Shown piece after piece: positions 14,406-33,571 of a stretch of DNA of 64,000 nt (position 1 is the stretch's first letter; the number at the start of each line of letters is the position of its first letter). The DNA comes from Opitutia bacterium (GTDB lineage: Bacteria; Verrucomicrobiota; Verrucomicrobiia; Opitutales; Opitutaceae): the NCBI GenBank assembly GCA_947478395.1, contig CANJVR010000004.1:260864-324863 (forward strand). Direction: 5' to 3'. The translations under genes were made by a program, and so were the position numbers. The notes under the pieces are model-generated. The model made no database searches. It saw nothing but the letters and a program-made list of their open reading frames with translations, and had not been told where the DNA came from.

Positions 14406-14459
14406 AGAATCCAAACGCTGGCCGCCGCTTTTTTTGTTCTCGCCGAAATCTCATTCCCT

Positions 14460-16010: not shown

Positions 16011-16026
16011 ATTACACTACTAAATT

Positions 16027-17268
16027 ATGAGATCAGTAACCTTCGTCATCACTTGGTTTGCCGTGGTCGGGCTTATCGCTGCGCGCGCCGCAGACGCCCC
16101 GCGCACTTTTCTTTTGTCCGCCCCGGCGCTCGTCGCGGCGAAAGCGAGTCTCGACCGGGGTGAACCCGGCTTGCAGCCCGCACTCGTGGCATTGCGGGCC
16201 GAGGCTGATCGCGCTCTCGCGCGGCCGGCGCGCTCGGTCATGGACAAAACCACGACGGCCTCGACCGGAGACAAACACGATTATTTCAGCTATGGTCCGT
16301 ACTGGTGGCCCGACCCCGCGAAACCGAACGGACTTCCTTACATCCGGCGCGACGGCGAGATCAACCCGGCCGCCCGGCAAGGTTGCGACGATCAGGAGTT
16401 CAGCCGCCTGACCACCGCGGTCGACACCCTGAGCCTCGCGTATTGGTTTACGCGGGACGAACGGTACGCGGAGCAAGCGGCTAAATTAGCCCGGGTATGG
16501 TTTCTCGAACCGGCCACGCGCATGAATCCCAATCTTGAGCACGCGCAGGCGATCCCGGGAATCAATGATGGCCGTGGCATCGGCATCATCGAATCCCGGC
16601 GGTTGGCGACGATCGCGGAAAGTCTGTCACTGCTGGCGGGTTCGCGCGCCTGGGCTTCCGCCGATCAGGAGGCGTTCCGCACCTGGCTCGCCGCGTTCTA
16701 TTCCTGGCTCACGACCAGCAAAAATGGCCGCGACGAACACGGGGAGCTAAACAATCACGGCTCCTGGTACGATTTCCAATCCGCGCACCTCGCGCTCCAA
16801 CTTGATCGCCGCGATGACGTCAAAAAGATCCTGACGGAAGGCCTCACACTTCGACTCGCCAGTCAGGTTCAGCCCGACGGTTCGCAACCGCGGGAACTCG
16901 CCCGCACCAAGTCGTTCGACTATTCATTGTTCAACCTCGAGGCGTTGTTTGGGTGTGCGCAACTGGCGCGTCACGTGGGAGTGGATTGGTGGTCGTTCGC
17001 CACGCCTGACGGTCGGAGTCTTCGCGCTGCGCTCAATTACGTGGCGCCGTATATGGATCCGCACTTGGAGTGGCCGAAGAAGGATTTGCACGACGCCGAC
17101 CGCACACGGTTGGTGCCCTTGGTCGATCTCATGCTCCAGCACGGCGAAGACGCCTCGTTGCGCCGCGTCTACGAAAAATTTTCGGAAACTTCGGGTGCGG
17201 ATGCTCGCTGGCGTCTGACTGAGAACCGGCCGTTTGCCCGCGCGGCCGCGCGGCCCGCGGGTCCGTGA
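16027..17268 (+). CDS. Alginate_lyase (PF05426)-domain polysaccharide lyase, PL38-like
   Basis: GDKHDYFSYGPYWWPDP, PYIRRDG, TRMNPNL, NNHGSWYD, QPRELARTKSFDYSLFNL. Confidence 0.85.
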   Translation: MRSVTFVITWFAVVGLIAARAADAPRTFLLSAPALVAAKASLDRGEPGLQPALVALRAEADRALARPARSVMDKTTTASTGDKHDYFSYGPYWWPDPAKPNGLPYIRRDGEINPAARQGCDDQEFSRLTTAVDTLSLAYWFTRDERYAEQAAKLARVWFLEPATRMNPNLEHAQAIPGINDGRGIGIIESRRLATIAESLSLLAGSRAWASADQEAFRTWLAAFYSWLTTSKNGRDEHGELNNHGSWYDFQSAHLALQLDRRDDVKKILTEGLTLRLASQVQPDGSQPRELARTKSFDYSLFNLEALFGCAQLARHVGVDWWSFATPDGRSLRAALNYVAPYMDPHLEWPKKDLHDADRTRLVPLVDLMLQHGEDASLRRVYEKFSETSGADARWRLTENRPFARAAARPAGP

Positions 17269-17393
17269 TCGGCCGTTTGAGGGCAATTGTTGGCGGAACT
17301 GGGGCGACTCGGTTTTTTCCCTTCGCCGTGGACGCGTTGGTTGAGTTTCGATGCGGTTGCTCGCCGTAGAGCAACCGCTTCCCAGCTAATCTC

Positions 17394-19655
17394 GTGACCA
17401 TTTCAAAGATTTTTTCCGGCAAATATCGGTGGTGGAGAATCGTGGCCGGCCTCGCAGTGGCCTATTCGCTTTCGGTTTCGATTTGGTATTTCTCGCACGC
17501 GACGCGGGGCGGAAACCCAACTAAACTTGCTTCCACGGGTGCCGCACGAGCCAGCGGCGAGATGGCGAAATCGACCGATTGCCGAAAGTGTCACGAGGAA
17601 ATTTTCAAAACATGGTCTGCGTCGGACCACGCCTTGGCCCATCGTCCGGTCGACGCAAAGTCCGATGCCGATGCGTTTCAACCGACCAGCGCATTTGAAC
17701 TTCACGGCGTAAATTACCGGACCGGCTGGGAAAACGGCCGGCCGGCGCTTTCGGAATCTCAGCCTGGCGCGTCGGCCCACCGTTTCACCGCCGAATTCGT
17801 CATGGGGTACAAACCGTTGCGGCAGTATATCGCTCCGACCGAGGGCGGGAGGTACCAAGCGGTGGAGCTCGCCTTCGATCCGCTTAAAAAAGAATGGTTC
17901 GACGTGTTCGGCGACGAACGGCGTCGCCCGGGCGAATGGGGCCATTGGACGGGTCGGGGCATGAACTGGAACTCGATGTGCGCCGTCTGCCATCTCACGA
18001 ATTTCCAGAAGAACTACAGCGCGGCGACGGATACCTATGCGTCGACGTGGAGCGAACACGGAATCGGTTGCGCCCAGTGTCATGGTGAGATCGCCGCGGA
18101 CCACGGTCGGGGTCTTCCCGCGATTTCGACGAATCCTGAAATCGTGGCGGCGCGAAAGCTGCGTGCGCAGGAAACATGCGCTCCGTGTCACGCGCGCAAC
18201 GAAATGCTGACGGGCGATATTCAACCCGGCCGCAGCTATTCCGATCACTACCGGCTCGCCTTGCCGGTGGAGGCGGGAGTGTTTTACGCCGACGGCCAGA
18301 TGAGGGAGGAGGATTTTAACTACACGTCATTTCTCACGAGCAGAATGGGCGGCAAGGCCGGGGTCACCTGCCTCGATTGCCATGATTCCCACAGCGGCAA
18401 GCCGCGGTTGCCCGTGGAAAATAATGCGCTCTGCCTGCAGTGCCACACCACGCCGGGCACCATGAATGCTCCGGTGATCGATCCGACCGCGCATTCCCAC
18501 CATGCTTCCGAAAGCACCGGCAATCGTTGCGTCTCATGTCACATGCCGACGACGGTTTTCATGCAGCGTGATCCGCGTCACGATCATGGCTTTCTCCGGC
18601 CGGATCCGCTGCTGACGAAGGAGCTGGGCATCCCCAACGCCTGCAACCGGTGTCACGCGGACCAATCCACCGACTGGGCGATCGCCGCGACCACGAACTG
18701 GTACGGGGGCAAGATGGAGTCTCGCCAGCGCGAACGAACGCGGGCGGTCGCCGCTGCTCAGGCGGCGGCGCCGGACGGAGCCGCGAAACTATTGGCGTTG
18801 GCCGCCTCGGAACAAGTCCCCGCGTGGAAAGCGACGTTGCTTTCGTTGACCCGCGCGTACGAAACCGAAACCGAAGTCGTCGCGGCTGCGGCTCAGGCGC
18901 TCAACGACGGCGAGCCGCTCGTTCGTTCGGCTGCGGTTCAGGTGCTCGCCGCGCGAGGAGACCAATCGTCGCAATTGCGGCCCCGGTTGAAGGATCCCTC
19001 CCGTCTGGTGCGCCTCGATGCGGAATTCGCGCTGTCGAATGAGCTCCCGGAAAATTCGGTGGAGCGCCGCGAACTTGACGCCTACTTGGCGACGTCGGCC
19101 GATCAGCCCGCGGGCCGCATGCGGTGGGGGCAGGACCTGTTCAATCGTGGCCGCGCGGCCGAAGGTGAGGCGCAGCTGCGTCAGGCGATCGCCTGGGACC
19201 CGAATTCTCCGGGCATTCACGATGCGCTGGGCGCTGGACTCCATTCGCTCAACCGTGAAAAAGAGGCGGCGGGGGAATTCTGGCGCGCCGCGCAACTTCA
19301 ACCCGCCGACGGGGACGCCGCCTTTCGCGCGGCTTTGGCGTTTGCCGGGGCGGGACAATTGTCCGACGCCGAACTCGCCCTGCGTGAGACGATCCGGCGC
19401 GACGCGCGGCACGATCGCGCGTGGTATAATCTTGGCCTGCTCCTCGCGCAAACCGATCGGGTCCCGGCTGCGCTCGATGCGTTGCACTCGGCTGAAGCCA
19501 TCGCGCCGACGGTCCCCGATTACCCGTACGCGGAAGCGACGATAAAGTGGGAGCGCCGGGATCGGGTGGGTGCAGCGGCGGCGGCGCGCCGGGTGCTGGC
19601 GATCGATCCGAATCACCGGTTGGCGCGCGAGCTTTTGCGGGCGACCGGCGGTTGA
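17394..19655 (+). CDS. Membrane-anchored octaheme c-type cytochrome with HEAT and TPR repeats
   Basis: Eight CxxCH motifs (CRKCH, CAVCH, CAQCH, CAPCH, CLDCH, CLQCH, CVSCH, CNRCH), N-terminal TM helix, HEAT-like (DGEPLVRSAA, DPSRLVRLDA) and TPR-like (AWYNLGLLL) segments. Confidence 0.88.
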   Translation: MTISKIFSGKYRWWRIVAGLAVAYSLSVSIWYFSHATRGGNPTKLASTGAARASGEMAKSTDCRKCHEEIFKTWSASDHALAHRPVDAKSDADAFQPTSAFELHGVNYRTGWENGRPALSESQPGASAHRFTAEFVMGYKPLRQYIAPTEGGRYQAVELAFDPLKKEWFDVFGDERRRPGEWGHWTGRGMNWNSMCAVCHLTNFQKNYSAATDTYASTWSEHGIGCAQCHGEIAADHGRGLPAISTNPEIVAARKLRAQETCAPCHARNEMLTGDIQPGRSYSDHYRLALPVEAGVFYADGQMREEDFNYTSFLTSRMGGKAGVTCLDCHDSHSGKPRLPVENNALCLQCHTTPGTMNAPVIDPTAHSHHASESTGNRCVSCHMPTTVFMQRDPRHDHGFLRPDPLLTKELGIPNACNRCHADQSTDWAIAATTNWYGGKMESRQRERTRAVAAAQAAAPDGAAKLLALAASEQVPAWKATLLSLTRAYETETEVVAAAAQALNDGEPLVRSAAVQVLAARGDQSSQLRPRLKDPSRLVRLDAEFALSNELPENSVERRELDAYLATSADQPAGRMRWGQDLFNRGRAAEGEAQLRQAIAWDPNSPGIHDALGAGLHSLNREKEAAGEFWRAAQLQPADGDAAFRAALAFAGAGQLSDAELALRETIRRDARHDRAWYNLGLLLAQTDRVPAALDALHSAEAIAPTVPDYPYAEATIKWERRDRVGAAAAARRVLAIDPNHRLARELLRATGG

Positions 19656-19690
19656 CGCGACGCCCGCGGCGTAGGTCACAACCATTATTT

Positions 19691-19774
19691 TGGTGCCCGG
19701 GACAGGACTCGAACCTGCACACCTTACGGCAAAGGCTTCTAAGACCTTCGTGTCTGCCATTCCACCACCCGGGC
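19691..19774 (-). tRNA. tRNA-Leu (anticodon TAG)
   Basis: Reverse complement GCCCGGGTGGTGGAATGGCAGACACGAAGGTCT-TAG-AAGCCTTTGCCGTAAGGTGTGCAGGTTCGAGTCCTGTCCCGGGCACCA: acceptor stem, long variable arm, TTCGA T-loop and encoded CCA. Confidence 0.97.
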
Positions 19775-20240
19775 GAGACGGGAGAGAGTGCCGAGCCGGC
19801 CGCGGCAGACGCAAGCGGGGAAATCTGCCCTAAGAACGCGCGGATGTTCGGGCCGGCCAAGCGCGCTTATGGCTCCTCGCGTCCATGCCTGGGTTTAAAA
19901 TTTTTTCGCATGCGTCCGACCGCTGGACCGCCGACCTTCTCGGCGATTTCCAGCTTTTCAAGCGGGCCATTGGCGTGGTTTGGCCGGCGATTTTGAGCCG
20001 AAACAATGCTCCGGTTAGCCTCAAGGCGCCGCCACACTCGTCGAGCAAGGCGTGCGGCTTACGCCCGAGGGCGCGGTTCGCGCGGGGATTGAGGTGTTGA
20101 GGGCCGGGCTTGCCCTCGACCCCGCGAGCCGCACCAGCGGCGCCGGGAAAAGCGAAATCTTGAACCTACTTGTCTACGGCCGTCGGCTGACGAAGGTATT
20201 CTGCTGAAGCCCCGCGCTACTGATAAATTATTTTCCCCCT

Positions 20241-20555
20241 ATGATTCGCAAAGCCTTTGTCATGTCAGTCCACGCCGGCCACGAGGCCGAGTACGCCCGC
20301 CGGCACCAGCCGATCTGGGCCGAACTCGAAGCCGTGCTCAAAGCGCATGGCGTGCATAACTACTCCATCTTCCTGCATCCGGAAACGCGCCAGCTTTTCG
20401 GTTACGCCGAAATCGAGAGCGAAGCGCGCTGGGCGTCGATCGCGCAGACCGACGTTTGCCAGCGTTGGTGGAAACACATGGGCGATGTCATGCCCAGCAA
20501 TCCCGATCACAGTCCGGTGTCGCGCGGCCTGGATGAAGTTTTCCATATCGATTGA
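20241..20555 (+). CDS. rhaM: L-rhamnose mutarotase
   Basis: [39 protein letters not shown]; 104 aa. Confidence 0.93.
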
Positions 20556-20583
20556 GCGCGGGCGCGCCGCCGACGTTGCCGCC

Positions 20584-23500
20584 ATGAAATTTTACTCCCC
20601 CGTTTTTTGCGCGGCACTGTTTGCGGCGACCGTCGTCGGATCGGCGCAGACGCCCGCGGCGCTCAGGGTCACACCCAACCTCTCCGGCCAAATTGAGCAT
20701 CCGCTGCGGTATCGCCCGGAAAACGGGGCGTTCGTAATTGAAAATGGCACGGAGACGTTCAACCGCCCGCTCTACGGCGGTAACACCGCCTTCCGCGTCG
20801 ACGGTGGCGACAAGCCGGAGTTTGTTCTCTATCTCCCCGGTCGCGGCGGTAACTTGCGCCTGGGGCTGTCCGGCGCGGCCGGCGCGAAGTGGCTGCTCGA
20901 TGCGGCGCGCGTGACGACGAGTTACGTGCCCGGCGAATTGCGTTACGAGATCCGTGATCCGCTGTTGGGGGCCGATGGCGTCTTGCGCCTAGCGGTCATC
21001 GCCTACGCGCAGACGGAAGGCGTGATCGTCCGGGCTGAATTGGAAGGGAGCCCGAGAACGGCTCCGCTCGAATTGGTCTGGGCCTACGGCGGCGTGAACG
21101 GCCAGCGCGGCACGCGCGACGGAGATATCGGCACGGAGCGCGTGCCGATCAGCGAATGGTTTCAGTTGCTGCCGGAATTTTGTCGTGACGATCGCATCGA
21201 GCTCGCCGCCGCCGGGGGATTTACGCTGCGCGCGAAAGCGGCGACGATCGTAGGCGTGGCGCCGGGCGCGCAAGCTGGTCTCGGCGACGCTAATCTCTGG
21301 CGTGATTTGCCGGCGCTGCTCGCATCGGTCTCGAACGCCCCGCTGACGTCGCTACCGGCCGATGCCTTGCGCGTGGTCGTCGGCCGGGCGCCGCTTGTCG
21401 CGCGAGAACCATTGTTGATTTCGTTGCAGCGCGTGGAGACCGCGGGGGCTGCACCGCAGGATCTTGAAACCTATCGCGAGGTCACGGCCGAGCGCCCGGG
21501 TGCGGTGAAGCGCGCTCCGACGAAGGTCGCGTTGCCGCCGGTGTTCCAGCCGGCCGATCTGCCGCGCGTCTTCGCCGAAAGCGCGGCGTATTTCCAAGCG
21601 TTGCGCACGCGCGTGACGATTGAAACGCCCGACGCCTACATCAACGCGGCGGCCGCGGCGCTGAATGTCGCTGCCGATGCGGTTTGGGATGAGGCGCAGG
21701 GCGGCATCATGCACGGTGCGATCGCGTGGCGCACGCAGTTGCTCGGGTGGCGCGGGCCTTATTCGCTCGATGCGCTCGGCTGGAGCGATCGCGCCCGCAA
21801 AAATTTGCTGCACTGGTCAGCCCGGCAAAACACCGATGCGATCCCGGCGAAACTTCCGCCGGCCGATGCCAACGCCAATCTCGCGCGCAGCGAAACGGCG
21901 CTGCACAGCAACGGCGACATGTCGAATTCCCACTACGACATGAACGCCGTTTTTATCGACGGGCTTTTCCGCCATCTGCGCTGGACGGGCGACGTGGAGT
22001 TCGCCCGCACGATGTGGCCAGTGATCGAGCGGCATCTGGCGTGGGAACGCCGACTTTTCCGGCGCGAATTTGGCGCCCAAAAGTTGCCGCTCTACGAAGC
22101 GTACGCCGTCATTTGGGCGAGCGACGACTTGCAGTACAGCGGCGGCGGGGCGGCCCACGCCTCGGCCTACAATTATTATCATAACCGCGAGGCCGCGCGA
22201 CTGGCCCGATGGCTCGGCGTTGACGCGATTCCGTACGAGCGCGAAGCCCAAGCGATCGCCCAGGCGATGCGCGAGCTGCTGTGGATGCCGGAGCGAGGCA
22301 CGTTCGCGGAGTCGAAGGATTTACTGGGCCGGCAGCTCGTGCATCCGAGCGCGGCGCTCTGGACGATTTACCACACGATTGATTCCGAAGTGACTACGCC
22401 CGCGGAGGCGTGGGCGATGACGAGGTACGTGGAGGCGAATCTTCCGCAATTGCCCGTGCGCGGTCCGGGCGTGCCGGCCGACGCGGACTATCACATGTAC
22501 GCGTCGTCGGACTGGATGCCGTATTCATGGTCGATCAACAACGTCGTCATGGGTGAAAACGTACACACGGCGCTGGCGTTTTGGGAAGCGGGCCGGTCCG
22601 AGGCGGCTTTCGAACTCACCAAAAGTTCGCTGCTCGCCTCCATGTTCATGGGCATTTGTCCGGGTAACGTCGGCTCGATGAACTACCTCGATGTTTACCG
22701 TCGCGAGTCGCAGCGCGATTTTGCCGACGGTAGCGGCGTGCTGTCGCGCGCGTTGATCGAGGGACTTTTCGGTGTGCGGCCGGACGCGCTCGCCGGCGAA
22801 CTGAAAATTGCGCCGGGCTTTCCGGTCGCTTGGAACGACGCGAAGCTGCGGCACCCGCAGGTCGGTTTTGAATTCCATCGCAACGCGCGAGCGGACACCT
22901 ACGTCGTCGAGCCGCACTTCGCGAAACCGATGCAGGTGCGTTTCCAGCTGCCCGTGCTGGCGGCGACCGCGCAGGCCACGGTGAACGGAAAAGCGGTGAC
23001 GGTGACTCGCCTGACCGGCCCGGCGGGCGCGGAGCGCATCGAGATCACGTGTCCGGCGGCGTCACGGTCGGAGATCGCGGTGACCTGGTCGGGCGCGCGG
23101 GTGACTCCTCCGGCCGAGGTCGATCCCCGCCGGCGTTTCGCGAACCGATCGACGGCCGCCTCCGATCAGCCGGGGTCAGCCGTCCCGGCGAATTACGAAA
23201 CGGTTGATTTGACGAAAACGTTCAACGATCGCGTGACCGAAATTTTCCGCTTGGGGAAATACGTTTCGCCGCGTTCGCCGTATGTGTCGCTCGCGTTGCC
23301 GGCGCAAGGCATCGGAGCGTGGGCTGGCCACATGAACGAAATGGCGGAGATCGACGATCGCGGTTTGCGCGCGGTGGCGGCGGCCAACGGCGGGAAGCTG
23401 ACGCTGCCGAATGGCGTCCCTTTCGCGACGCCCGCGGCGGCGGATGCCAAGAACATCATTTTTGCGTCGCAGTGGGATAATTATCCGCGTGACGCGTCCG

Positions 23501-23916
23501 TGGCGCTGTCCGGTCGGGCGCGGCGATTGCACCTGCTGATGGCGGGCTCGACGAATCATATGCAGAGCCGGATCGACAATGGGGAAATCGTCGTGACGTA
23601 CACCGACGGATCGACGGCGCGTCTGGCCCTGAGCAATCCGGAGACGTGGTGGCCGATTGAGCAGGACTATTTTATCGACGACTATCAGTTCCGGTTGGAT
23701 GGGCCGTTGCCCGCGCGGGTGGACCTTGCGAGCGGAAAAGTACGGGTGCTCGATCGCGAAAAATTTAAAGGCCGCGGTGGCGCGATCAAAGGCGGCGCGG
23801 CGACCGTGTTGGAGCTGACGTTGGATCCGGCAAAAACGCTGCAATCGCTCACGGTGCGTGCGCTCGCGAACGACGTCGTGATCGGCCTGATGAGCGCGAC
23901 GTTGGCGCGGGAGTGA
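20584..23916 (+). CDS. Large secreted DUF4450-type glycoside hydrolase (probably GH139-related)
   Basis: FNRPLYG, FRVDGGDKPEF, HGAIAWR, LGWRGPY, HYDMNAVFID, WASDDLQYSGG motifs; signal peptide from MKFYSP; co-oriented just downstream of rhaM. Confidence 0.7.
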   Translation: MKFYSPVFCAALFAATVVGSAQTPAALRVTPNLSGQIEHPLRYRPENGAFVIENGTETFNRPLYGGNTAFRVDGGDKPEFVLYLPGRGGNLRLGLSGAAGAKWLLDAARVTTSYVPGELRYEIRDPLLGADGVLRLAVIAYAQTEGVIVRAELEGSPRTAPLELVWAYGGVNGQRGTRDGDIGTERVPISEWFQLLPEFCRDDRIELAAAGGFTLRAKAATIVGVAPGAQAGLGDANLWRDLPALLASVSNAPLTSLPADALRVVVGRAPLVAREPLLISLQRVETAGAAPQDLETYREVTAERPGAVKRAPTKVALPPVFQPADLPRVFAESAAYFQALRTRVTIETPDAYINAAAAALNVAADAVWDEAQGGIMHGAIAWRTQLLGWRGPYSLDALGWSDRARKNLLHWSARQNTDAIPAKLPPADANANLARSETALHSNGDMSNSHYDMNAVFIDGLFRHLRWTGDVEFARTMWPVIERHLAWERRLFRREFGAQKLPLYEAYAVIWASDDLQYSGGGAAHASAYNYYHNREAARLARWLGVDAIPYEREAQAIAQAMRELLWMPERGTFAESKDLLGRQLVHPSAALWTIYHTIDSEVTTPAEAWAMTRYVEANLPQLPVRGPGVPADADYHMYASSDWMPYSWSINNVVMGENVHTALAFWEAGRSEAAFELTKSSLLASMFMGICPGNVGSMNYLDVYRRESQRDFADGSGVLSRALIEGLFGVRPDALAGELKIAPGFPVAWNDAKLRHPQVGFEFHRNARADTYVVEPHFAKPMQVRFQLPVLAATAQATVNGKAVTVTRLTGPAGAERIEITCPAASRSEIAVTWSGARVTPPAEVDPRRRFANRSTAASDQPGSAVPANYETVDLTKTFNDRVTEIFRLGKYVSPRSPYVSLALPAQGIGAWAGHMNEMAEIDDRGLRAVAAANGGKLTLPNGVPFATPAAADAKNIIFASQWDNYPRDASVALSGRARRLHLLMAGSTNHMQSRIDNGEIVVTYTDGSTARLALSNPETWWPIEQDYFIDDYQFRLDGPLPARVDLASGKVRVLDREKFKGRGGAIKGGAATVLELTLDPAKTLQSLTVRALANDVVIGLMSATLARE

Positions 23917-24029: not shown

Positions 24030-25190
24030 CTACATCCCTGCGCCGTCGCGGAGGGTGTCGGCTGAGCAGGTGCGCCGGTAAAAATCGACGTAGTGCGAGA
24101 CGATCGGCTCGGCGGAAAACATTTCTTTCGCCCGAAGCCGGGCCGCGGCGCCGAGCGCGGCTCGGCGGGTGGGATCGGCGATCAACGCATCGACGGCGCG
24201 GGCGAGCGCAGCCGTATCGCCGAGCGGTACGAGCACGCCGCTTTCGCCGTCGACGATCACTTCCGGCACACCGCCGACACTGGTCGAAACGCTGGGACAG
24301 CCAAACGCCATCGCCTCGAGAATGCTCAGACAAAAACTTTCGCTCTCCGAAGCGAAGAAGCCGAGATCCGCGGCTTGAAGGTAATCTTCGATCGCAATGA
24401 CGTTTTCGCGGACGATCACGCGGCCATGGAGGCCCAGGCGTTCAACGCTGGCTGCGTACGGTGAAAAATCTCCACCGGCTAGAATGAGCAGCTTGCAGGT
24501 GGAGCGCGCCTGCAGCCGGGCAAACGCCTCGATCAGGCTGTCGACCCGTTTCACGGGTCGAAGATTGGAAGCGTGCAGCAGGAGGAATTCGTCGTCCGCG
24601 ACCCCCAGTTCCCGACGGACTTCGGCGCGCGTGCGAGTGGGCGCGCGCGGCTCGAAGAAATTGTGGATCACCTCGATCGGTCGTTTGACGGCGATCAGGC
24701 GCTGGGTTTCCCGCCGGAGAAATGCCGAGACCGTGGTGATTCCATCGGCGTGTTCGAGGGCGTGGCGGATGGCGGGACCGTAGCCGGCATCGCGTCCGAG
24801 GAGCGTGGTATCCGTGCCGTGCAACGTAGTCACGACCTTCGGCCGCCGGTGGGCGGGCAGCATGTCGCGCGCGAGAATGGCGGCGGTTGCATGCGGCACG
24901 GCATAGTGTGCGTGGAGGACGTCGAGTTCGTGTTCGCGGGCGACCTCGGCGAGTTTGACGGAAAGCGGCAGCGTGTAGTCCGGATATTTGAACAGCTCGT
25001 AGGCGTTGATCTCGACTGGATGGAAATGAATGCGCGGGGCGTCGAGCGGCAGGCGAAAGGGGCGCTCGTAGCTGATGAAGTGAACTTCGTGGCCGCGGCG
25101 TGCGAGTTCCTCGCCGAGCGCGGAGGCGAGGATGCCGCTGCCGCCGACGCTGGGATAGCAGGTGATGCCGATTTTTAGAGAATGGGTCAT
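24030..25190 (-). CDS. bshA: N-acetyl-alpha-D-glucosaminyl L-malate synthase BshA (GT4)
   Basis: KIGITCYPSVGGSG, HEVHFISY..PFRL, HYAVPHA, TTLHGTD, SNLRPVKRV, ESFCLSILEAMA. Confidence 0.88.
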   Translation of the reverse strand: MTHSLKIGITCYPSVGGSGILASALGEELARRGHEVHFISYERPFRLPLDAPRIHFHPVEINAYELFKYPDYTLPLSVKLAEVAREHELDVLHAHYAVPHATAAILARDMLPAHRRPKVVTTLHGTDTTLLGRDAGYGPAIRHALEHADGITTVSAFLRRETQRLIAVKRPIEVIHNFFEPRAPTRTRAEVRRELGVADDEFLLLHASNLRPVKRVDSLIEAFARLQARSTCKLLILAGGDFSPYAASVERLGLHGRVIVRENVIAIEDYLQAADLGFFASESESFCLSILEAMAFGCPSVSTSVGGVPEVIVDGESGVLVPLGDTAALARAVDALIADPTRRAALGAAARLRAKEMFSAEPIVSHYVDFYRRTCSADTLRDGAGM

Positions 25191-25263: not shown

Positions 25264-25974
25264 TTAGAACCGTCGGGCGGAGCGGACCATCGGCGCGAGG
25301 GAATCGACGACAAGGGGATCGGCGGGCCAGAGCGGAATGGCGTGAGCGACGCCCGCGCTGAGACCGTGCAGATGGGCGCGCGTCAGCTGGAGCTCGACGT
25401 AATCGCGCGTGGCGGCTTGCGAGGCGTGGGCTTTCATCGCCGCGGACCACGGGGCGACGAAATCGGAGACGTTGACGACGAGGGCGGCTTGGTTGCGCGG
25501 TTCGGCCTCGGGTGTGATCGCGTAGAAAAACAGTGCGCCGATGGCATGCGCCGGGGTGTCGCGCAATTCCGGGACGCCGCCGTAGCGGGCAAGGCGGGCC
25601 GCGTTGCGGACGAGGTTTCCCAGCGTGTAGTGATCGGGGTGCTGGTTTTCGACCAACGTCGGCGCGAGCACCACGGCGGGGCGGATGCGGCGGATGATCG
25701 CCGCGAGTTTGAGGGTGTACGGGAGCGACGGGACGAAGTGGGCATCGCCGCCGAGGTCAGCAAATTCAAGCGAGGCGCCGAGAAGTTGGGCCCCTTTCTC
25801 GGCTTCGACGGTGCGCTGGGCGGGTGTGCCGTTGGTCCCGGATTCGCCCTTGGAGCAGACGACGAAATGAGTGGGCCGGCCCGCGGCGGTTTCGCAGGCG
25901 ATGATGCCGCCGGCTCCGAATTCGATGTCGTCGGGATGGGCGCCGAAAACAAGCAGGGTGTTGGTATCAGACAT
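25264..25974 (-). CDS. bshB1: BshB1-like PIG-L family deacetylase
   Basis: FGAHPDDIEFGAGG, KGESGTNGT...R..EA, HPDH; start reset to MSDTN (ATG 25974); adjacent to bshA. Confidence 0.85.
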   Translation of the reverse strand: MSDTNTLLVFGAHPDDIEFGAGGIIACETAAGRPTHFVVCSKGESGTNGTPAQRTVEAEKGAQLLGASLEFADLGGDAHFVPSLPYTLKLAAIIRRIRPAVVLAPTLVENQHPDHYTLGNLVRNAARLARYGGVPELRDTPAHAIGALFFYAITPEAEPRNQAALVVNVSDFVAPWSAAMKAHASQAATRDYVELQLTRAHLHGLSAGVAHAIPLWPADPLVVDSLAPMVRSARRF

Positions 25975-26737
25975 CGGTGTAGGCTTCGTCGGAACGATCG
26001 ATGGTTTCACGCATGACGAATTCGATCTCGGGTGCGTCGGCTTTGTTGAGATAGGCCTGTTCGCCGGCGCCGGAGATGTAGTGCGTGCAATGCAGCACGG
26101 ATTGCATCCAGCGCAAACGGCTGTCGCGCGAGGGGCTGATTTGAGCGGAGTCGAACGGCACGGGAGGAAGCGTGATAAACGAACTGCCCCCTTCGTGAAG
26201 CTGCAACGCACCATCGACGTGGCGGGCGCGGACGATTTCGCCCTCGTAGGGGACGTCGACAAAGAAATCCGAAATCGCGCAGGCGGTCCGGCGGAAGTCT
26301 GGATCGCCCGAGCGCGCGACGCGGATGCCCTCGAGCAATCCCATGGCGCGGTACATCTCGAGGCAGAAATCCGCGACGTTGTCGGCGGCGACTTTCTTAA
26401 AAGCGTCGACCCACTTCGCGTCGACGAAAGCGGGAAGCTGGCGCGCGGTGTTGTCCGGCCAGCCCGCGGGAATGCGTTTGGCGTAGAGCGGGGAAAATTT
26501 CCGCTGCAGCTTGTTTGCGAACGCGAAGTTCAGGGTGAGCGGCGCGTCGGTTTTACGGTGACGGACGGTGGTCTGGGTTTCGCGGCAGTCGTGGTCGCTG
26601 TCGTGATAAAAGAAAACGATCTCGCCGCCAATCTCGGCCTGGAGCCGCCGGGCGGTTTGAAATTTGGCGAAGAGAAAACGCCGCGGAAAAAAACCGCACG
26701 GTTGTTGTCCGAAGCAGATGACGGGGCTGGTGCTCAT
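25967..26737 (-). CDS. Compact (256 aa) BshC-like protein
   Basis: GQQ...K, VFF.HDSDHD, SP...R..MQ and YISGAGEQAY match the BshC motifs TGQQ...K, VFW.AGEDHD, SP/N...RP.Q and GPGE.AY; stop overlaps the bshB1 start. Confidence 0.7.
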   Translation of the reverse strand: MSTSPVICFGQQPCGFFPRRFLFAKFQTARRLQAEIGGEIVFFYHDSDHDCRETQTTVRHRKTDAPLTLNFAFANKLQRKFSPLYAKRIPAGWPDNTARQLPAFVDAKWVDAFKKVAADNVADFCLEMYRAMGLLEGIRVARSGDPDFRRTACAISDFFVDVPYEGEIVRARHVDGALQLHEGGSSFITLPPVPFDSAQISPSRDSRLRWMQSVLHCTHYISGAGEQAYLNKADAPEIEFVMRETIDRSDEAYTDV

Positions 26738-26897
26738 CGGCGGCCGGGGCCAGCAGGTGACGGGGCGGAAGGATTGGAGATTTGGCCGCAAAAACGCGCG
26801 AAAATTTCCGGGGCGGCGGCGGGACCGTGAAGGCTTCTATAGGCGCGCGGGAGACGAGCGTCGGAGCCGGAGATAATATGGCGCCTTTTTGCGGCCA

Positions 26898-28616
26898 TCA
26901 CGGTTTGAGGTCGGCCGATTTCGGCAGTGCGGCTTGGAGGGCGAGGGCGAAGAGCACGCAGACGGCGCAACCGATCGGGTTCAACCACAGGTAGCCGATT
27001 TCGTGGGCCGGGTATGCTTTGCCGAGAAAGTAAATCGCGATGACGACTCCCTGTGCGGCCACTGCCGCCCAGAAAACCGCGGTGCCTTTCACGTGTTTCA
27101 GGAAGAACGCGACCATGAAGACCCCGAGCAACGTGGGATAGAAAATCGAAGCCACGATATTCAGCGCCTCGATCAGGTTTTCCGCGAAACTCACGAAGAG
27201 CGCGAAGCCGATCGCGAAAAGGCCCCAGAGGCCGGTGAACCATTTTGCGACGCGAACGTTGCGGGCCTCGTCGTGCGCGGCGAGCGGCCGGAAGTTGCGC
27301 CAGAGATCGATCGTAGTCGTGGTGGCGAGGGCGTTGAGCTCGCCGGCCTTGGACGAAAGGGCGGACGCAAACATCACGGCGAGCAACAGCCCGATCGCGC
27401 CGTGGGGCAGCTGGGTTAAAATGAAAGTGATGAAAACGTAGTCGGAGTCCTTGGTTTTCTTCGTGGACGGATCGGCGGCTTGCAGCGCGGTGAGGGCTTC
27501 GCCGCGGAGCGCGTTCGAGGCCTTTTGGGCGGCGAGCATCTCGACGCGGGCGGCGGCTTCGAGGCCGGAGTCGGCGCGGGGACTTTCGCGCGCGGCCACC
27601 CACGCGCGAATCTTTGCTTGTTTGTCGGCGTGGAGCGCGGCGTGTTTTTGCTCGAGCTCGCGGAATTTGGCCCCGTCGGGTCCCTCGGCGGCGTGGCGCC
27701 ACTGGGTTTGGTTGAACAGGACCGGCGTGTTGGGCTGCGACTGAAAAAACACGAAGAGCAGCGCGCCGAGGACCACGATGAAGAACTGCATCGGGATCTT
27801 GAGGACCGCGTTGAACATCAAGCCGAGCCGGCCCTCGCGCAGCTGCGCGCCGCCGATGTAGCGCTGAACCTGGGATTGATCAGTGCCGAAATAGGAGAGC
27901 GAAAGAAAGAAGCCGCCGAGGATGCCGCTCCACACGGTGTAGCGAATCTTGAGGTCAGGCGTGTAGTTGACGGCCTCGAGTTTGCCGAGGGCGCCCGCGA
28001 TGTGGAAGGCGTCGCTCGGGAGTTTGTGCAGCAACACGACAAAGGCGGTGACCATGCCGCCGAAGATCACGCCCATCTGCCATTTCTGGGTGAGATTCAC
28101 TGCGGCGCTGCCGCCGGTGACGGTGTAGACGATCGCGACGAGGCCGGTGCAAACGATGGTCAGATCGAGCCGCCAGCCGAGCATGGTCGAGAGGATGATC
28201 GCGGGGGCGTAGATGGTGATGCCGGCTTGTATGCCGCGCTGGAGTACGAAGAGACCGGCGCCGAGCAGGCGGGTTTTTTTATCGAAGCGCTGGCCGAGAT
28301 ATTCGTAGGCGGTGTAGACGCCGAGCTTGCGGTAAATCGGCAGGAACACCACGCACACGACAATCAAGGCGAGCGGCAGGCCGAAATAATTTTGGATGAA
28401 CGCGATCCCGTTCTCGCTGGCTTGGCCCGGGAGCGAAAGGTACGTGATCGTGCTCGCTTGCGTGGCCATGACGGAGAGCCCGATCGTGCCCCACTTGGTC
28501 GTGCTGTTCCCCTTGAGGTAGGTGGCGAGGTTGTCGGTGTGGCGCGTGCGCCACGCGCCGTAGGCGGCGATGCCTACGATGGTTCCGAGGAGCACGAGCC
28601 AGTCGAAGGCGTTCAT
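26898..28616 (-). CDS. Sodium:solute symporter (SLC5/SSS family)
   Basis: Multiple TM helices; SVMATQAS, TAYEYLGQRFD, YFGTDQSQVQRY, KDSDYVFITF. Confidence 0.92.
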   Translation of the reverse strand: MNAFDWLVLLGTIVGIAAYGAWRTRHTDNLATYLKGNSTTKWGTIGLSVMATQASTITYLSLPGQASENGIAFIQNYFGLPLALIVVCVVFLPIYRKLGVYTAYEYLGQRFDKKTRLLGAGLFVLQRGIQAGITIYAPAIILSTMLGWRLDLTIVCTGLVAIVYTVTGGSAAVNLTQKWQMGVIFGGMVTAFVVLLHKLPSDAFHIAGALGKLEAVNYTPDLKIRYTVWSGILGGFFLSLSYFGTDQSQVQRYIGGAQLREGRLGLMFNAVLKIPMQFFIVVLGALLFVFFQSQPNTPVLFNQTQWRHAAEGPDGAKFRELEQKHAALHADKQAKIRAWVAARESPRADSGLEAAARVEMLAAQKASNALRGEALTALQAADPSTKKTKDSDYVFITFILTQLPHGAIGLLLAVMFASALSSKAGELNALATTTTIDLWRNFRPLAAHDEARNVRVAKWFTGLWGLFAIGFALFVSFAENLIEALNIVASIFYPTLLGVFMVAFFLKHVKGTAVFWAAVAAQGVVIAIYFLGKAYPAHEIGYLWLNPIGCAVCVLFALALQAALPKSADLKP

Positions 28617-28759
28617 GCGAACACAAAGGAAAACACCGTCAGCGCGACCACGGTGGCGACGAAGACCACGAAGACGAAAATGTAGACGCCCCTCCAGGTG
28701 TGGAAGAACGGAACGCCGGGCGACTCGTCGCCGGATTTATCGTCAGGGCGGGGCGTCAT
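28613..28759 (-). CDS. 48-aa single-pass membrane protein (not in the ORF track)
   Basis: MTPRPDDKSGDESPGVPFFHTWRGVYIFVFVVFVATVVALTVFSFVFA*. ATGA overlaps at both ends (with the PIG-L stop at 28756 and the SSS start at 28616). Confidence 0.82.
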   Translation of the reverse strand: MTPRPDDKSGDESPGVPFFHTWRGVYIFVFVVFVATVVALTVFSFVFA

Positions 28760-31296
28760 TCCTGCCCCAGCGAGAGGAGATTCGCGAACAGCCGGTAGGC
28801 TCCGGGCACGCCCGCGGGAAGTTGCCGGAAGAAACCAAGGCCGGTGTAGACGTAGTGGCCTTTGCCGTATTTCGCGACGAGCACGCTGCCTTGCAGCGGA
28901 GCTTCACCGGGATCGTTCATGGCGAACAAAGGTGTGTAGTGTTCCTCGTCCCACGAGCTCGGAAAATAGGCGCCGCGCTCCTGCACCCAGCCGTCGAAGT
29001 CGGAGGGCGCGATGTGATTGGGCGCGTTGAGGGCGCGATGATCGGGCGAGAGAAACGACACGGGCGATTTTTCGTCGGTCACGCGGAAAGCGGGGGCGTT
29101 GCCCTGAATCGAAAGTTTGTACGGCCCGAGCTGCTGGGTCTTCAGGGCGTTGGGCCGGTTGTACTGCGCGATGACCGTGCCGCCGGCTTCGACGTAGGCG
29201 AGGAGGCCGGGGAAATTGTCTTTGAGATCGGTGCGCTCGTTGAAGGCGCGGACGCCGATGACGACGGCGTCGAAGCGTTTCAAATTGGCGGGAGTGAGAT
29301 CGGCGCCCGTGAGCTCGGTGACGGCGTAACCCATCTGCGCGAGATTTTCCGCGACGCTGTCGCCGGCGCCGGGCAGATAGCCGACGGTGCGGCCGCGGAT
29401 CGAGAGATCGAGCGCGACGACCTTCAAGCGGGTCGGAGGCTGGAGCAGTTGCACGGGAAGATGCTCGTAGCGGATCAGCGAGCGGCTGTTGTCGAAATGC
29501 GCGCCGTTGATGTCGGCGACAGCGCGGAGGCTGGCGGAGGCTTTCTCGGCCGGGGCGTTGACGGTGAAGATGAGCCGCGCCTTGTCGCCGATCGCGGCCA
29601 GCTTGAACGGTTGGGTGGCCGGCGAGATTTTCCAGCCGGCGGGTGTTTCCAGATGGATCGTGCCGGTGGCGCCCGCGCGAGCGGCGGTGACTTCGACGGT
29701 GGCCGTTTTTGAGGCGCCGGGGGCGAAGAGCTCGACTTCGACGCCGAAGCTGAGCGAGACGGGCGGGATGACTTCGAGATGGCGGCGGGCTTGGGCTTCG
29801 GGCGCGCCGGCAACGATCTGCACGGGTTCGTCGGCGACGATCAGGGTTTGGCCGCCCACTTCGAATACGAACTCGACGGGAAAGGCCGGAGGATTTTCCG
29901 GTCGGCCGATGAGCGACGGGTTGTCGACGCGGAACATGCCCGCGGTACCTTCGAGGCGGAGCCAGTAGGGCTGGGTGGGCACGGTGGTCGCGGGAAGAAT
30001 GGTTTTCTGTTCACGACGAACCGCCTGGCCTGCGGTGAAAGCGGTGCTGAATTTGATTTCGTCGCTCTTCGATGGGTAACGCAATCCGGTCCAACGGACG
30101 GGGACTTTGGACGCGACGGTGGCCGTGTGACTGAGTGCGAGCGATTCGCCGGGGACGACCTCGGCTTGCGGAAGCGTCGTTTCGACGGCGAGGCCGAGGC
30201 AGTGCGTAAGGATGCGGTCGAGCTGGCGGCGTTTTTCGTCAATCACGCGATCGGCGGGCAGCGCGGCCACGCGGCTGCGGATGGCGAGAAGAGCGGGGAC
30301 GTTGGCCGCAGGATCAGCGGAATTGAACGCGGCGATGGCGGCATCGGTGAGGCGGGCGATCTCGGCCCCGTTGGGGAAACGAGCCCAGGTGAGGTCGATG
30401 CCGTCCATGATGTCATTGGTGGCGGGTTCGCCGTCGATCAGCGTGAATGATTCGACGCGCGAGCCGCCGCCGCCGGCGCCAAAATTGCCGAAGCCCTGCG
30501 TCTTGTGCATGGCGCGGCTGCGGCCGGCGATGGAGCCGAAAGATTCGCCGGTGACGGGATCGTTGCCGCCCATTTCCATGCGGACCGTGCCGGTGGGAGG
30601 AGCAGCCGGGGCCGCCGTTGGGGCGTTGCCCCCGCGGCCGGGGCCGCTGCCGTTGAGGAGAATCCGCTTGGGCTGCCAGACGGTGAGCTCCTTGAGCTGT
30701 TCGGGGAAGGCCTTGGGGTCCCCGGCGAGCTTGAACGCTTCGAGGGCGAGGACGGCGGACGTGTTGTGCTGGCCGTGATTGCCGGGTTGGGGCACGGGCG
30801 CGAAGCGGGTCACGATCACGTCGGGCCGGAAAGTCCGGATGACGCGAACGACGTCACCGACCAATTGCTGGCGGTCCCAGAGGCCGAGGGTTTCGTTGAC
30901 GCTCTTCGTATAGCCAAAATCGAGAGCCCGGGTAAAAAACTGTTGGCCGCCGTCGAGCCGTCGGGCGGCGAGCAGTTCCTGGGTGCGGGCGAGGCCGAGT
31001 TTTTCGCCGAACTCGGGGCCGAGTTCGTTTTGCCCGCCGTCGCCGCGGGTGACCGAGAGATAGGCGGCGCGATAGCCGCGGCCGCGGGCGAGGTACGTGA
31101 TGAGCTGGGTGTTTTCGTCGTCGGGGTGAGCGGCGACGTGCAGTACGCTCCCGAGCGTACTGAAGCTCTTCAAATCTTGCAGAATGGCGGCGGGGCTGGG
31201 CGGCGCTTCGGCGGCGGAGGCCGAAGCGGATGCGAAGCCAAAAGAAACCGTCCCGGCCCAGAGGCCGAGGTACCGCCGCCAGTGCAAGCGAGGCAT
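28756..31296 (-). CDS. Exported LmbE/PIG-L family deacetylase/amidase with a central Ig-like region and a C-terminal class I glutamine-amidotransferase-like domain
   Basis: Signal peptide; AAHPDDEN, TRGDGGQN, RTQELLAARRLDG, DFGYTK, HGQH; C-terminal GYLPGAGD...YVEAGGTVIAQY...FFRQLPAGVPGAYRL. Confidence 0.85.
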   Translation of the reverse strand: MPRLHWRRYLGLWAGTVSFGFASASASAAEAPPSPAAILQDLKSFSTLGSVLHVAAHPDDENTQLITYLARGRGYRAAYLSVTRGDGGQNELGPEFGEKLGLARTQELLAARRLDGGQQFFTRALDFGYTKSVNETLGLWDRQQLVGDVVRVIRTFRPDVIVTRFAPVPQPGNHGQHNTSAVLALEAFKLAGDPKAFPEQLKELTVWQPKRILLNGSGPGRGGNAPTAAPAAPPTGTVRMEMGGNDPVTGESFGSIAGRSRAMHKTQGFGNFGAGGGGSRVESFTLIDGEPATNDIMDGIDLTWARFPNGAEIARLTDAAIAAFNSADPAANVPALLAIRSRVAALPADRVIDEKRRQLDRILTHCLGLAVETTLPQAEVVPGESLALSHTATVASKVPVRWTGLRYPSKSDEIKFSTAFTAGQAVRREQKTILPATTVPTQPYWLRLEGTAGMFRVDNPSLIGRPENPPAFPVEFVFEVGGQTLIVADEPVQIVAGAPEAQARRHLEVIPPVSLSFGVEVELFAPGASKTATVEVTAARAGATGTIHLETPAGWKISPATQPFKLAAIGDKARLIFTVNAPAEKASASLRAVADINGAHFDNSRSLIRYEHLPVQLLQPPTRLKVVALDLSIRGRTVGYLPGAGDSVAENLAQMGYAVTELTGADLTPANLKRFDAVVIGVRAFNERTDLKDNFPGLLAYVEAGGTVIAQYNRPNALKTQQLGPYKLSIQGNAPAFRVTDEKSPVSFLSPDHRALNAPNHIAPSDFDGWVQERGAYFPSSWDEEHYTPLFAMNDPGEAPLQGSVLVAKYGKGHYVYTGLGFFRQLPAGVPGAYRLFANLLSLGQE

Positions 31297-31303
31297 GGCA
31301 GAA

Positions 31304-31897
31304 TTATTTCGCGGTCGTGAACGCCGCGGAGAACTTCGTCTTTTCCCAGGCGATGACCAGGGTGCCGCCGGCGGGAGGATTGGTTTCGATGCCGATCTGG
31401 AGCTGGTCGAGCTGGGTTTCCAGCGTGTCTTTTTTCAAATCGATCCGCGCGACGTCGTGGGTTTCATCGACTGGGATACCCCATTTGGCGACGTGGCTGC
31501 TGAACGCGAGTTTGCTGGTGCCGTTTTCCGAAGGGACAATGTAGAGGGTATAAACGCCGGCCGGGATCGTGGTCGCACCGAATACGAGCGACTGGTGGGT
31601 GAGGATCGTCGTGGCTTCGTCTGCGCCCATGCGTTCGGCCTTATCCCATTTCACCAAGCCGCCCCAGATTTTACGGATTTCGCCGGACTTCGGATCCTTG
31701 GAGTATGGCCGGCCATAGATGATCGTGATCAAGCTGGCATTCCGATCGGTGCCGACGCGCGCGTAGGTCGTTTCGTGGGGACTGACGCGGTTGTTGGACG
31801 GCGGGACGGCGGGTTTCGGCCCGGCGGGAGGCTGGGCGGTCAAGGTCGTGACGAGAGCGAGCGTGAGGGAAGCGAGGACGAGTTGGGAGCGGTTCAT
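31304..31897 (-). CDS. DUF2911 domain protein, secreted
   Basis: SP, YGRPY, IWGGLV, RMGADEAT, IPAGVYTLY, IAWE; signal peptide from MNRSQ. Confidence 0.8.
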   Translation of the reverse strand: MNRSQLVLASLTLALVTTLTAQPPAGPKPAVPPSNNRVSPHETTYARVGTDRNASLITIIYGRPYSKDPKSGEIRKIWGGLVKWDKAERMGADEATTILTHQSLVFGATTIPAGVYTLYIVPSENGTSKLAFSSHVAKWGIPVDETHDVARIDLKKDTLETQLDQLQIGIETNPPAGGTLVIAWEKTKFSAAFTTAK

Positions 31898-32254
31898 AAT
31901 AAGTTGTCTCCTTTTGTGAGGTGGACGGTGGGGGTGGATTGGGATCAGACGAACGGACACTAACGAAAATAAATGGGTGGCTGACGGTCGCGGGGAGCGG
32001 GAGCGAATTTTGGGGCCAGACGTGAAGGCGAATCGATGGTTGCGACCAAAGCAAGCGCGGGCACGAGGGTGTAAGGGCGAGCGGGCTTTTCAAGCGGGGG
32101 CCGCGTACGTCGAGGAAATATCGTCCGCGCCGTGCGATTGGTCAGTCGTCGCTGGAAATCAGGGCGCTCATTCGAGGATCCAGGCGCGATGGGCGGCTGC
32201 CTTTTCTTACTGCATGCTTTCTTTTTTTCCGCCGGAGCATCAACGTCGTGCCTC

Positions 32255-33571
32255 ATGGCGAACGCTGACGGTGCGGCTGCACCGCCCATCACTCTCACGG
32301 ATTTCAAACCCGAAACCATTCGGGGCACGCCGGGATTTTTCCGGGTGGGCCAGACCCACGCCGGCGTGTGGTGGTTGATCGATCCGGATGACAGCGCCTT
32401 TTTCAGCCGCGGGGTGAATGCGGTGGCGCGTGGCGTGGAGTCCCCGGCGGCGCCGGGTGAAGTACCGGCGGAGGAAATGGAATCGGCGGAACGGGACCTG
32501 GTGAAACGCACGCAGGCGAGTTTGCGGTCCTGGCACGTCAACACGCTTGGGCCCCGGAGCGCGCCGGAATTCGCGGGGCGCGGATTCGCGGAGACGGATA
32601 ACTTGGAATTTATCAACGTCGCCCCGCAGGCCGCGCTTCGCCTCGGTGGTGCGCGCGTGCCGGACGTTTTCGATCCAAAATGGGTTGAGGCGGTCGAGCG
32701 TCGTGCGGCTGAGCGCTGTGTATGGCGGGGCGCGAGCGCGGCCTTGATCGGTTATTTCACGGATGAGGGGCTGAACTGGGCGCAACTCCCGCCCGAAAAC
32801 GAGCCCGCGCGCGTGGAGCGTCCGTCATTGCTCCAGATTTGTCTGAGCCTTGAACCTAGTTTCCCCGCCTATCATGCGGCGTGGGAATTTGTCCTTGCTG
32901 CGCACGGGAGCGACTGGGCGATGCTCATGCGCGCCTGGGACGTCGACCTGCCCAACAAAGAAGCGTTGCGCCAGCTCACGCTCGCCGAACGCGCGCTCAC
33001 GAGTGCCGGCTACCGGCGCGATCAAGAGCGGTTTTCGCGCGAATTCGCCCGGCGGTATTTTGCCGCGACGGCCGGCGCGATTCGCCGGTACGATCCGCAT
33101 CACCTGATCTTGGGTTGTAATTTCGGCTTGGCGCCGGCGGCTGCGGTCATCGCTGAATGCGTCTCGCCGCACGTCGACGTGCTGGCGCTGAGTCTGCCGG
33201 ATCCGGCGATGGGCGAACGGATCGATCGTGACTCCCGCGTGCAGGGCATGCCGGTATTAGCGTCCGATTTTTCTTGGGCGCACGAATCATTCACGATTCC
33301 GGTCGGGCCGGACGAAGCGGAGGAACTCACCAGCGTCGAACGCATGCTGAGTCGCGGGCGTAGGGCGCTCGAGCGGGCTTTCACGCACCCGGCGCTGATC
33401 GGTTGCGCGTGGGCTGACTGGTCCGATGCGCCGGGGGATGTGCCGCCGTTTGGCCGCGGCCTCGTGCACGTTGACGGCCGCGAAGCGCGGGAACATACCG
33501 AACTTCTGTCTCATCTTTACGCCCGCGCCGAAACCCTTCGGGCGACTCGTCCATACTTCAATTCACCATGA
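32255..33571 (+). CDS. GH50 (agarase-like) fold protein with divergent catalytic motifs
   Basis: GFFRV...WWLIDP...FFSRGVN, PDVFDPKW, LIGYFTD, AIRRYDPHHLILG; no signal peptide. Confidence 0.65.
   Translation: MANADGAAAPPITLTDFKPETIRGTPGFFRVGQTHAGVWWLIDPDDSAFFSRGVNAVARGVESPAAPGEVPAEEMESAERDLVKRTQASLRSWHVNTLGPRSAPEFAGRGFAETDNLEFINVAPQAALRLGGARVPDVFDPKWVEAVERRAAERCVWRGASAALIGYFTDEGLNWAQLPPENEPARVERPSLLQICLSLEPSFPAYHAAWEFVLAAHGSDWAMLMRAWDVDLPNKEALRQLTLAERALTSAGYRRDQERFSREFARRYFAATAGAIRRYDPHHLILGCNFGLAPAAAVIAECVSPHVDVLALSLPDPAMGERIDRDSRVQGMPVLASDFSWAHESFTIPVGPDEAEELTSVERMLSRGRRALERAFTHPALIGCAWADWSDAPGDVPPFGRGLVHVDGREAREHTELLSHLYARAETLRATRPYFNSP

Follow-up and report, generated by a model that had tools for sequence, protein, structure and literature searches.

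The window examined here is a stretch of 64,000 nucleotides from an Opitutia bacterium of the Verrucomicrobiota (assembly GCA_947478395.1, contig CANJVR010000004.1, positions 260,864 to 324,863 of the forward strand). It carries on its minus strand a seven-gene cassette in which genes related to those for the synthesis of bacillithiol (BSH) follow the genes for a predicted exported PIG-L/LmbE enzyme, referred to below as the giant, and a sodium/solute symporter (SSS). The cassette is laid out as follows:

31304..31897, minus strand: DUF2911 protein, 197 amino acids (aa); PF11138 E 2e-29, signal peptide with hydrophobic N-terminus
28756..31296, minus strand: predicted exported giant PIG-L/LmbE metallo-amidohydrolase, 846 aa, assigned from PF02585, its motif and its predicted fold
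28613..28759, minus strand: 48-aa single-helix membrane peptide; one hydrophobic helix, no Pfam match
26898..28616, minus strand: SSS sodium/solute symporter, 572 aa; PF00474, TIGR00813 201.5 against a cut-off of 184
26738..26897, minus strand: 160-bp gap between the SSS and mini-BshC genes; atypical, as relatives usually have a 4-bp overlap
25967..26737, minus strand: mini-BshC, 256 aa, predicted from BshC fold and motifs
25264..25974, minus strand: cytoplasmic BshB1-like PIG-L deacetylase, 236 aa; TIGR04001 is its best match, below cut-off
24030..25190, minus strand: BshA, N-acetylglucosaminyl-malate (GlcNAc-malate) synthase, 386 aa; TIGR03999 412.5 bits against a cut-off of 273.7

A preliminary description of this stretch had given the order, overlaps and distances of these genes exactly. 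The DUF2911 gene lies 7 bp from the giant gene, which is joined to the peptide gene by an ATGA overlap, as the peptide gene is to the SSS gene; beyond the 160-bp gap, mini-BshC overlaps the BshB1-like gene by 8 bp and a further 73 bp separate the latter from bshA. The genes are single-copy in their own genome (98.8% complete) except for a 28% DUF2911 paralogue. Gene order elsewhere was read from 73 loci, which partly overlap the class sample described below and, being drawn from the best 80 of 602 species-genome matches, are biased to close relatives. In 39 of 58 of these loci the SSS and mini-BshC genes share a 4-bp overlap, which makes the gap of the window the exception. A 54-codon frame (26734-26898, minus strand) spans this gap, its start overlapping the SSS stop (TGATG) and its stop the mini-BshC start (ATGA); it could reflect translational coupling preserved after an insertion, or chance. 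A promoter scan returned 0 sites, none in the 160-bp gap, and terminator-like sites were at chance level. In one RNA run (share 0.11) short contigs fell within the DUF2911 gene, the giant gene and bshA, none of them crossing 26737-26898.

The two halves of the cassette travel together. A giant match at E 1e-30 was found in 46 of 301 genomes of the window's class and was full-length in 42; the remaining four (G141, G189, G201 and G285), which match only in the N-terminal third, were set aside and have no mini-BshC, BshA or close SSS. Mini-BshC occurs in exactly the 42 genomes with a full-length giant and in 0 of the 259 others, and BshA in 41 of the 42 (it is absent from G295, which is 77% complete) and again in 0 of 259. 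A close SSS orthologue was present in 6/6 cassette genomes and in 0/24 others tested. The giant gene lies less than 3.5 kb upstream of mini-BshC in 36 of the 42, at a distance in one and on a separate contig in five. In the locus set the order was kept for SSS in 68/68 testable loci, for mini-BshC in 58/58, for the BshB1-like gene in 52/56 and for BshA in 52/54, and a DUF2911 gene stands upstream of the giant in 57/65. The order is conserved across families and phyla, the record titles including Planctomycetota, Melainabacteria and Abditibacteriaceae; no other neighbour is conserved, the best being found in 7/45 loci. One record (L085/G301) is titled Candidatus Acidoferrum, and its phylum sample is the window's own phylum, a conflict of title and taxonomy.

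A second phylum was sampled through 200 genomes from that of G302 (titled Planctomycetaceae; this seed was excluded, its fragmented bshA having given no match). Here 92/201 genomes pass the BshA cut-off, and BshA was detected in 20/21 giant-positive and 74/179 giant-negative genomes. The genes are mostly unlinked, and BshC is canonical in 5/5 genomes tested. The association of the giant with BshA was found in both the class and the second phylum. The preliminary description had allowed that the link could be coincidental. A related possibility is a single fusion of two unrelated modules, which transfer then spread as one. The patchy distribution (42/301) and variable flanks do fit a travelling cassette, but the association persists unlinked in the second phylum, 0/301 genomes have lost only one module, and in G232 and G274 the symporter remains with the bsh genes when the giant is elsewhere (in G232 with its peptide). 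With the SSS/mini-BshC translational coupling (39/58) and the perfect co-occurrence in the class, coincidence is rejected for this lineage, and the hitch-hiking explanation, largely refuted already, is now scarcely credible.

The 256-aa gene, previously called bshC-like, has zero matches to Pfam or NCBIfam models, PF10079 included, and a search of solved-structure sequences with its profile returned nothing; fold search alone gave BshC. Its AlphaFold model has a pLDDT confidence of 96 and B. subtilis BshC (4WBD) as top match (Foldseek E 2e-9; Z 20.1, root-mean-square deviation (rmsd) 2.6, 237 residues aligned, about 16% identity), the next match being at Z 14.3. In hhalign against five canonical BshC proteins, residues 5-232 correspond to canonical 85-355 (probability 89.9, E 1.7e-6), and GQQP, a lysine, DHDxxE and GxGExxY are common to both. 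Neither the C-terminal QER motif nor the helical region at about 380-500 of 4WBD, which forms the coiled coil, is present, and the model has no long helices. The name therefore stood by fold and motifs, though not by any family model, and the protein is predicted to be a mini-BshC that keeps the Rossmann and connecting domains of BshC and dispenses with the coiled coil. In the available part of PMC5790435 the coiled coil is described as the dimer interface and the BshC reaction as not reconstituted, even for the B. subtilis enzyme. The mini-BshC family comprises proteins of about 255 aa (6856 matches, 246 representatives); distant relatives at 31-45% identity include P0127, P0128, P0133, P0148 and P0173. 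Canonical BshC (PF10079) was found neither in the own genome nor in five other cassette genomes, with controls positive, and GshB was found in 0/5.

It is against this background that one must ask whether the product is bacillithiol at all. Mini-BshC might add another acyl group, or the product might be an extracellular glucosaminyl-malate (GlcN-malate) derivative such as a metal chelator or osmolyte; the giant would then release the core and the SSS take it back. The missing coiled coil and QER motif, the low identity to 4WBD, the count of four envelope genes among the seven and the lack of YpdA (0/42) and bacilliredoxins (Brx, 0/5) would all suit such a product. The four motifs common with canonical BshC speak against it, as do the absence of canonical BshC from the own and five other cassette genomes and of GshB from 5/5. 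YpdA is also missing elsewhere: 69 of 80 BshA-positive genomes of the second phylum have no full-length match (E below 1e-70; 80 of the 94 BshA genomes were tested). We regard a different product as unlikely. The idea that the giant replaces a bacillithiol disulfide reductase was rejected, a YpdA-like gene being present in 6/20 giant-positive and 5/60 giant-negative BshA genomes.

The giant matches PF02585 over residues 52-187 at 56.3 bits (gathering score 28.2) and has the metal motif H57-x-D59-D60 with H177, invariant in 63 sequences. The available part of PMC4101496 defines the LmbE superfamily by an HXDD + H metal motif with a spacer of 97-148 and states that an N-acylglucosamine core is the target of every known member. 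The predicted model (pLDDT 92) consists of a PIG-L domain, a helical linker, two Ig-like domains and a C-terminal GATase1/ThuA-like domain. The PIG-L domain resembles MshB (1Q7T; Z 19.9, rmsd 4.0, 241 aligned), LnmX (Z 19.6) and BC1534 (Z 17.7), and solved relatives include chitobiose deacetylases. The C-terminal domain matches 2GK3 (Z 16.0) and has zero cysteines, and is therefore probably non-catalytic. The equivalog scores are 34.5 against a cut-off of 277 for Mca, 19.7 against 195 for BshB2 and 22.7 against 182.5 for BshB1. By these scores the giant is best classed as an LmbE superfamily member that is neither Mca nor Bca. A thiol S-conjugate as the specific substrate, one of the possibilities raised earlier, finds no support here, and the loss of BshB1 described below points at least equally to deacetylation of GlcNAc-malate. 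The signal peptide that had been assigned to the enzyme is clear in its relatives, with a distinct hydrophobic leader in 66/66 close homologues examined, but the window's own leader is weakly hydrophobic (best 9-residue mean 1.23). This leader (31296-31200, minus strand) has an RR pair (WRRYL) that is not universal among homologues; export of the window's giant by the twin-arginine translocation (Tat) pathway is possible. The giant family is common in Bacteroidota and Acidobacteriota, as judged from Atlas cluster labels only.

What the giant may act on is suggested by a gene that is sometimes missing. The 236-aa gene scores 121.2 with TIGR04001 (cut-off 182.5). It is present in 36/42 cassette genomes and absent from six, each at least 95% complete, and in these BshB1-less cassettes mini-BshC abuts bshA. 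On a mini-BshC+BshA tree of 58 loci, from which one duplicate was dropped and G228 fell out by the length filter, its absence takes four parsimony changes. The genomes of G282 (one contig), G228 and G258 have a single PF02585 match, the exported giant, the positive control having worked; G060, G211 and G114 have additional matches that are not BshB-like. The cytoplasmic deacetylase thus appears to be dispensable in some lineages. Because the cells without it keep BshA and mini-BshC, their GlcN-malate would have to come from the giant and SSS or from an unrelated deacetylase.

One could read this as a purely biosynthetic detour, in which GlcNAc-malate exits, perhaps by exchange through the SSS, loses its acetyl group in the periplasm and comes back in, the giant being chiefly a biosynthetic deacetylase with no part in conjugate turnover. 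The repeated loss of the BshB1-like gene while BshA, mini-BshC, SSS and giant are all retained, and the presence of the giant in all 42 cassette genomes, agree with this. However, 36 of those 42 keep the cytoplasmic deacetylase, a giant match is lacking from 74 of the 94 genomes with BshA in the second phylum, and an unrelated deacetylase could fill the BshB1 gap, which leaves the detour improbable.

The second indication comes from gene clusters elsewhere. Full-length giant relatives of about 30% identity occur in plasmid records, and in 8/8 alphaproteobacterial loci read (seven annotated, one via tblastn) the relative, which has no signal peptide, stands with a ROK regulator, a sugar ABC (ATP-binding cassette) system and an 'argininosuccinate lyase'. 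The Loktanella cluster adds nagB and the Roseinatronobacter cluster a cysteine dioxygenase-family gene, and Bacillus F19 has an exported giant with the lyase and a NagK-like kinase. A query with the lyase gave 37 records, of which eight further regions were examined. That of Deinococcus wulumuqiensis comprises ROK, lyase, a 707-aa PIG-L, sugar ABC, a small PIG-L and a kinase. Around the lyases of Paroceanicella and Roseomonas there is ROK with nagB or SIS and no PIG-L; those of Shinella, Bosea, Terrarubrum and D. aetherius are accompanied by sugar ABC only, and the eighth, of Haladaptatus, is without a sugar ABC system. The cluster records, all plasmid records, are L134 (814-9337), L135 (2059-9400), L136, L143-L148, L245, L248 and L251. 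Scanning metagenomes for the Bacillus giant turned up a single weak locus.

The cluster lyases pass the ArgH model TIGR00838 (312.8, 352.1 and 294.6 against a cut-off of 279.5), keep the aspartase/fumarase signature (SSxMPxKxN, TH) and have ArgH-type lyases as nearest solved relatives. All eight have FTDMNDSE or FGDIVDTE where the ArgH of the window's genome has YNRDLQED, a segment (YNxDxQED) that presumably binds arginine in ArgH. The 'argH' annotation is probably mistaken. Since the lyase lies within sugar ABC operons with glucosamine genes, we propose that it is a sugar-malate C-O lyase; and as the presence of a PIG-L enzyme points to an amine that is acylated, oxygen is the best position for the succinyl unit, as in glucosaminyl-malate. 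The cluster substrate would then read as one that yields glucosamine and fumarate, and the clusters are a candidate route, previously undescribed, for the breakdown of bacillithiol or GlcN-malate. The cluster lyase was absent from 5/5 cassette genomes tested, which hold only a housekeeping ArgH of about 30% identity, as expected if the core is reused and not broken down.

The loss of BshB1 and the catabolic clusters together support N-acyl-glucosaminyl-malate as the likely substrate class, and with it the earlier suggestion of GlcN-malate as the shared core. The giant might instead deacetylate other N-acetylated sugars such as cell-wall or chitin fragments, with the SSS importing an amino sugar or the intact thiol and the bsh genes tied in through precursor supply. 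It carries Ig-like and GATase1-like accessory domains of a sort typically found in carbohydrate enzymes, and chitobiose deacetylases are among its solved relatives, but no conserved sugar kinase or nag gene is found at the cassette, and this explanation, which leaves both the BshB1 loss and the lyase-containing clusters unaccounted for, is one that we consider quite improbable.

The symporter scores above the PF00474 and TIGR00813 cut-offs, and its nearest solved relatives are the anion carriers SMVT, SMCT1, 5NV9 and NIS, with the sugar SGLTs behind. An extra helical loop of about 90 aa (residues ~300-390), absent from the solved SSS alignments and kept in length in 32 homologues, is possibly a docking site for the giant or the DUF2911 protein. 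The 48-aa peptide has the pattern P-G-x-P-x-F-x-T-W-x-x-V-Y followed by a helix and gives zero Pfam or NCBIfam matches. It was found with a -4 overlap in 40/68 loci; no ATG was located in 25 and no peptide in 3. It is a probable accessory subunit of the symporter. The DUF2911 protein is predicted to be an exported accessory protein. A tandem DUF2911 pair stands upstream of the giant in at least 20 of 73 loci (L062, L063 and L074-L076 among them), and in G232 one DUF2911 gene lies beside each separated half of the cassette.

We therefore favor a model in which this self-contained cassette directs the synthesis of a bacillithiol-type thiol and the retrieval, across the inner membrane, of its glucosaminyl-malate core, and we put its probability at a little better than even (about 0.55). 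In the cytoplasm BshA would form GlcNAc-malate, the BshB1-like enzyme would deacetylate it and mini-BshC would add cysteine, as family knowledge and fold suggest. Outside the cytoplasm the giant, presumably zinc-dependent, would cleave the N-acyl bond of N-acyl-GlcN-malates, own or foreign, among them leaked or exported GlcNAc-malate, bacillithiol, its disulfide and S-conjugates, which would reach it by an export route that we infer. The symporter and its peptide partner would import GlcN-malate, inward transport being the presumed direction, and mini-BshC would re-ligate it.

A number of points weigh against this model. The anatomy, folds, motifs, co-occurrence and coupling were observed; every substrate, the transport direction and the export route are inferred. 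The giant falls far below the Mca, BshB1 and BshB2 cut-offs. YpdA was found in 0/42 cassette genomes and BrxA/B and BrxC each in 0/5, with controls positive, so the classic bacillithiol redox network is not evident. There is no exporter in the operon, and across 45 loci neither an exporter nor an S-transferase is conserved within the cassette or next to it. In the second phylum an SSS neighbor stands at just 5/18 giant loci examined, and 74/94 BshA genomes are without a giant at E 1e-30. The relatives in the catabolic clusters are only about 30% identical and apparently cytoplasmic, five alphaproteobacterial records and D. aetherius have the lyase with no PIG-L in view, and the Haladaptatus lyase region lacks a sugar ABC system. 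All counts are inflated by kinship and by one spreading cassette; they are patterns and not p-values, because kin are not independent.

A wider version of the model would be an extracytoplasmic bacillithiol cycle. Producers with a minimal BshC would hydrolyse N-acyl-GlcN-malates in the periplasm and take the core back up, cytoplasmic BshB being fully replaced in some lineages. Soil and marine non-producers would draw on the giant family, a sugar ABC importer, a glucosaminyl-malate lyase misnamed 'ArgH', a sugar kinase and NagB, and would consume bacillithiol as cysteine, fumarate and glucosamine. This proposal is tentative, and we give it clearly less than an even chance.

Two neighbors of the cassette lie outside this argument. 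A divergent 479-codon frame (32132-33571, plus strand) has no Pfam or NCBIfam match, and its motifs recall what we take to be agarase-like glycoside hydrolases. A convergent cluster (12897-23916, plus strand) encodes a chondroitinase-B-like lyase, a sulfatase, an alginate lyase, a multiheme cytochrome-TPR protein and a 1219-aa DUF4450 protein, and is not kept beside the cassette elsewhere.

In the literature searched (subscription papers and supplements were not covered) no account was found of the cassette operon, a short BshC, the function of DUF2911 or a GlcN-malate lyase. Verrucomicrobia and Planctomycetes are listed without a documented or predicted thiol in the available part of PMC6282198 (2018). 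The cassette in about 14% of the sampled class and the 92/201 genomes of the second phylum that pass the BshA cut-off bear on such 'no thiol' lineages. BSH import or export is described as not established in the available part of PMC5790435, and for that question the cassette offers a candidate for the importer together with a processing enzyme that is predicted to be exported. A natural 256-aa BshC without the coiled coil would define the minimal catalytic core, and the catabolic clusters, if the proposal is true, would be the first breakdown route for bacillithiol or GlcN-malate and would hold a new C-O lyase named argH.

Several known systems resemble parts of what is described here. Some ArgH-like enzymes are not ArgH, such as S-(2-succino)cysteine lyase and EDDS (ethylenediaminedisuccinate) lyase; the cluster lyase shares the superfamily signature, with the YNxDxQEDK-type segment swapped for FTDMNDSE. 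SSS transporters of the ActP/YjcH type have small membrane partner peptides, and the cassette also has a tiny single-helix gene overlapping the symporter start, although its peptide has no Pfam or NCBIfam match. In the glutathione cycle of Gram-negative bacteria the thiol is exported, cleaved by a periplasmic gamma-glutamyl transpeptidase and taken up again in parts. The proposed model shares with it the cleavage of a thiol outside the cytoplasm and the re-import of its parts; this is a works-like analogy only, since the enzymes, transporter class and thiol are unrelated. Glutathione export to the periplasm is mentioned in the available part of PMC5790435. With the mycothiol enzymes MshB and Mca and LmbE-like proteins the giant shares the HXDD+H site and the Rossmann-like PIG-L fold (1Q7T Z 19.9, 5BMO Z 19.6), but it has a signal peptide and three extra domains, and its scores fall far short of the cut-offs for Mca and MshB. 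Bca and Mca are small, cytoplasmic and single-domain, whereas the second PIG-L enzyme of the cassette has 846 aa, four domains and a predicted exported location.

The closest likeness is to the bacillithiol pathway of Bacillus subtilis and B. anthracis as well as S. aureus. The cassette is probably a variant of this pathway, one extended by an exported recovery of the core that is not yet shown for bacillithiol. Both have a BshA orthologue, a PIG-L deacetylase, a BshC-fold ligase and an LmbE enzyme that could in principle release GlcN-malate. The BshC of the cassette differs in being half-size and without the dimerising coiled coil, YpdA and the bacilliredoxins were not found, and the operon has its own dedicated symporter, peptide and DUF2911 gene.

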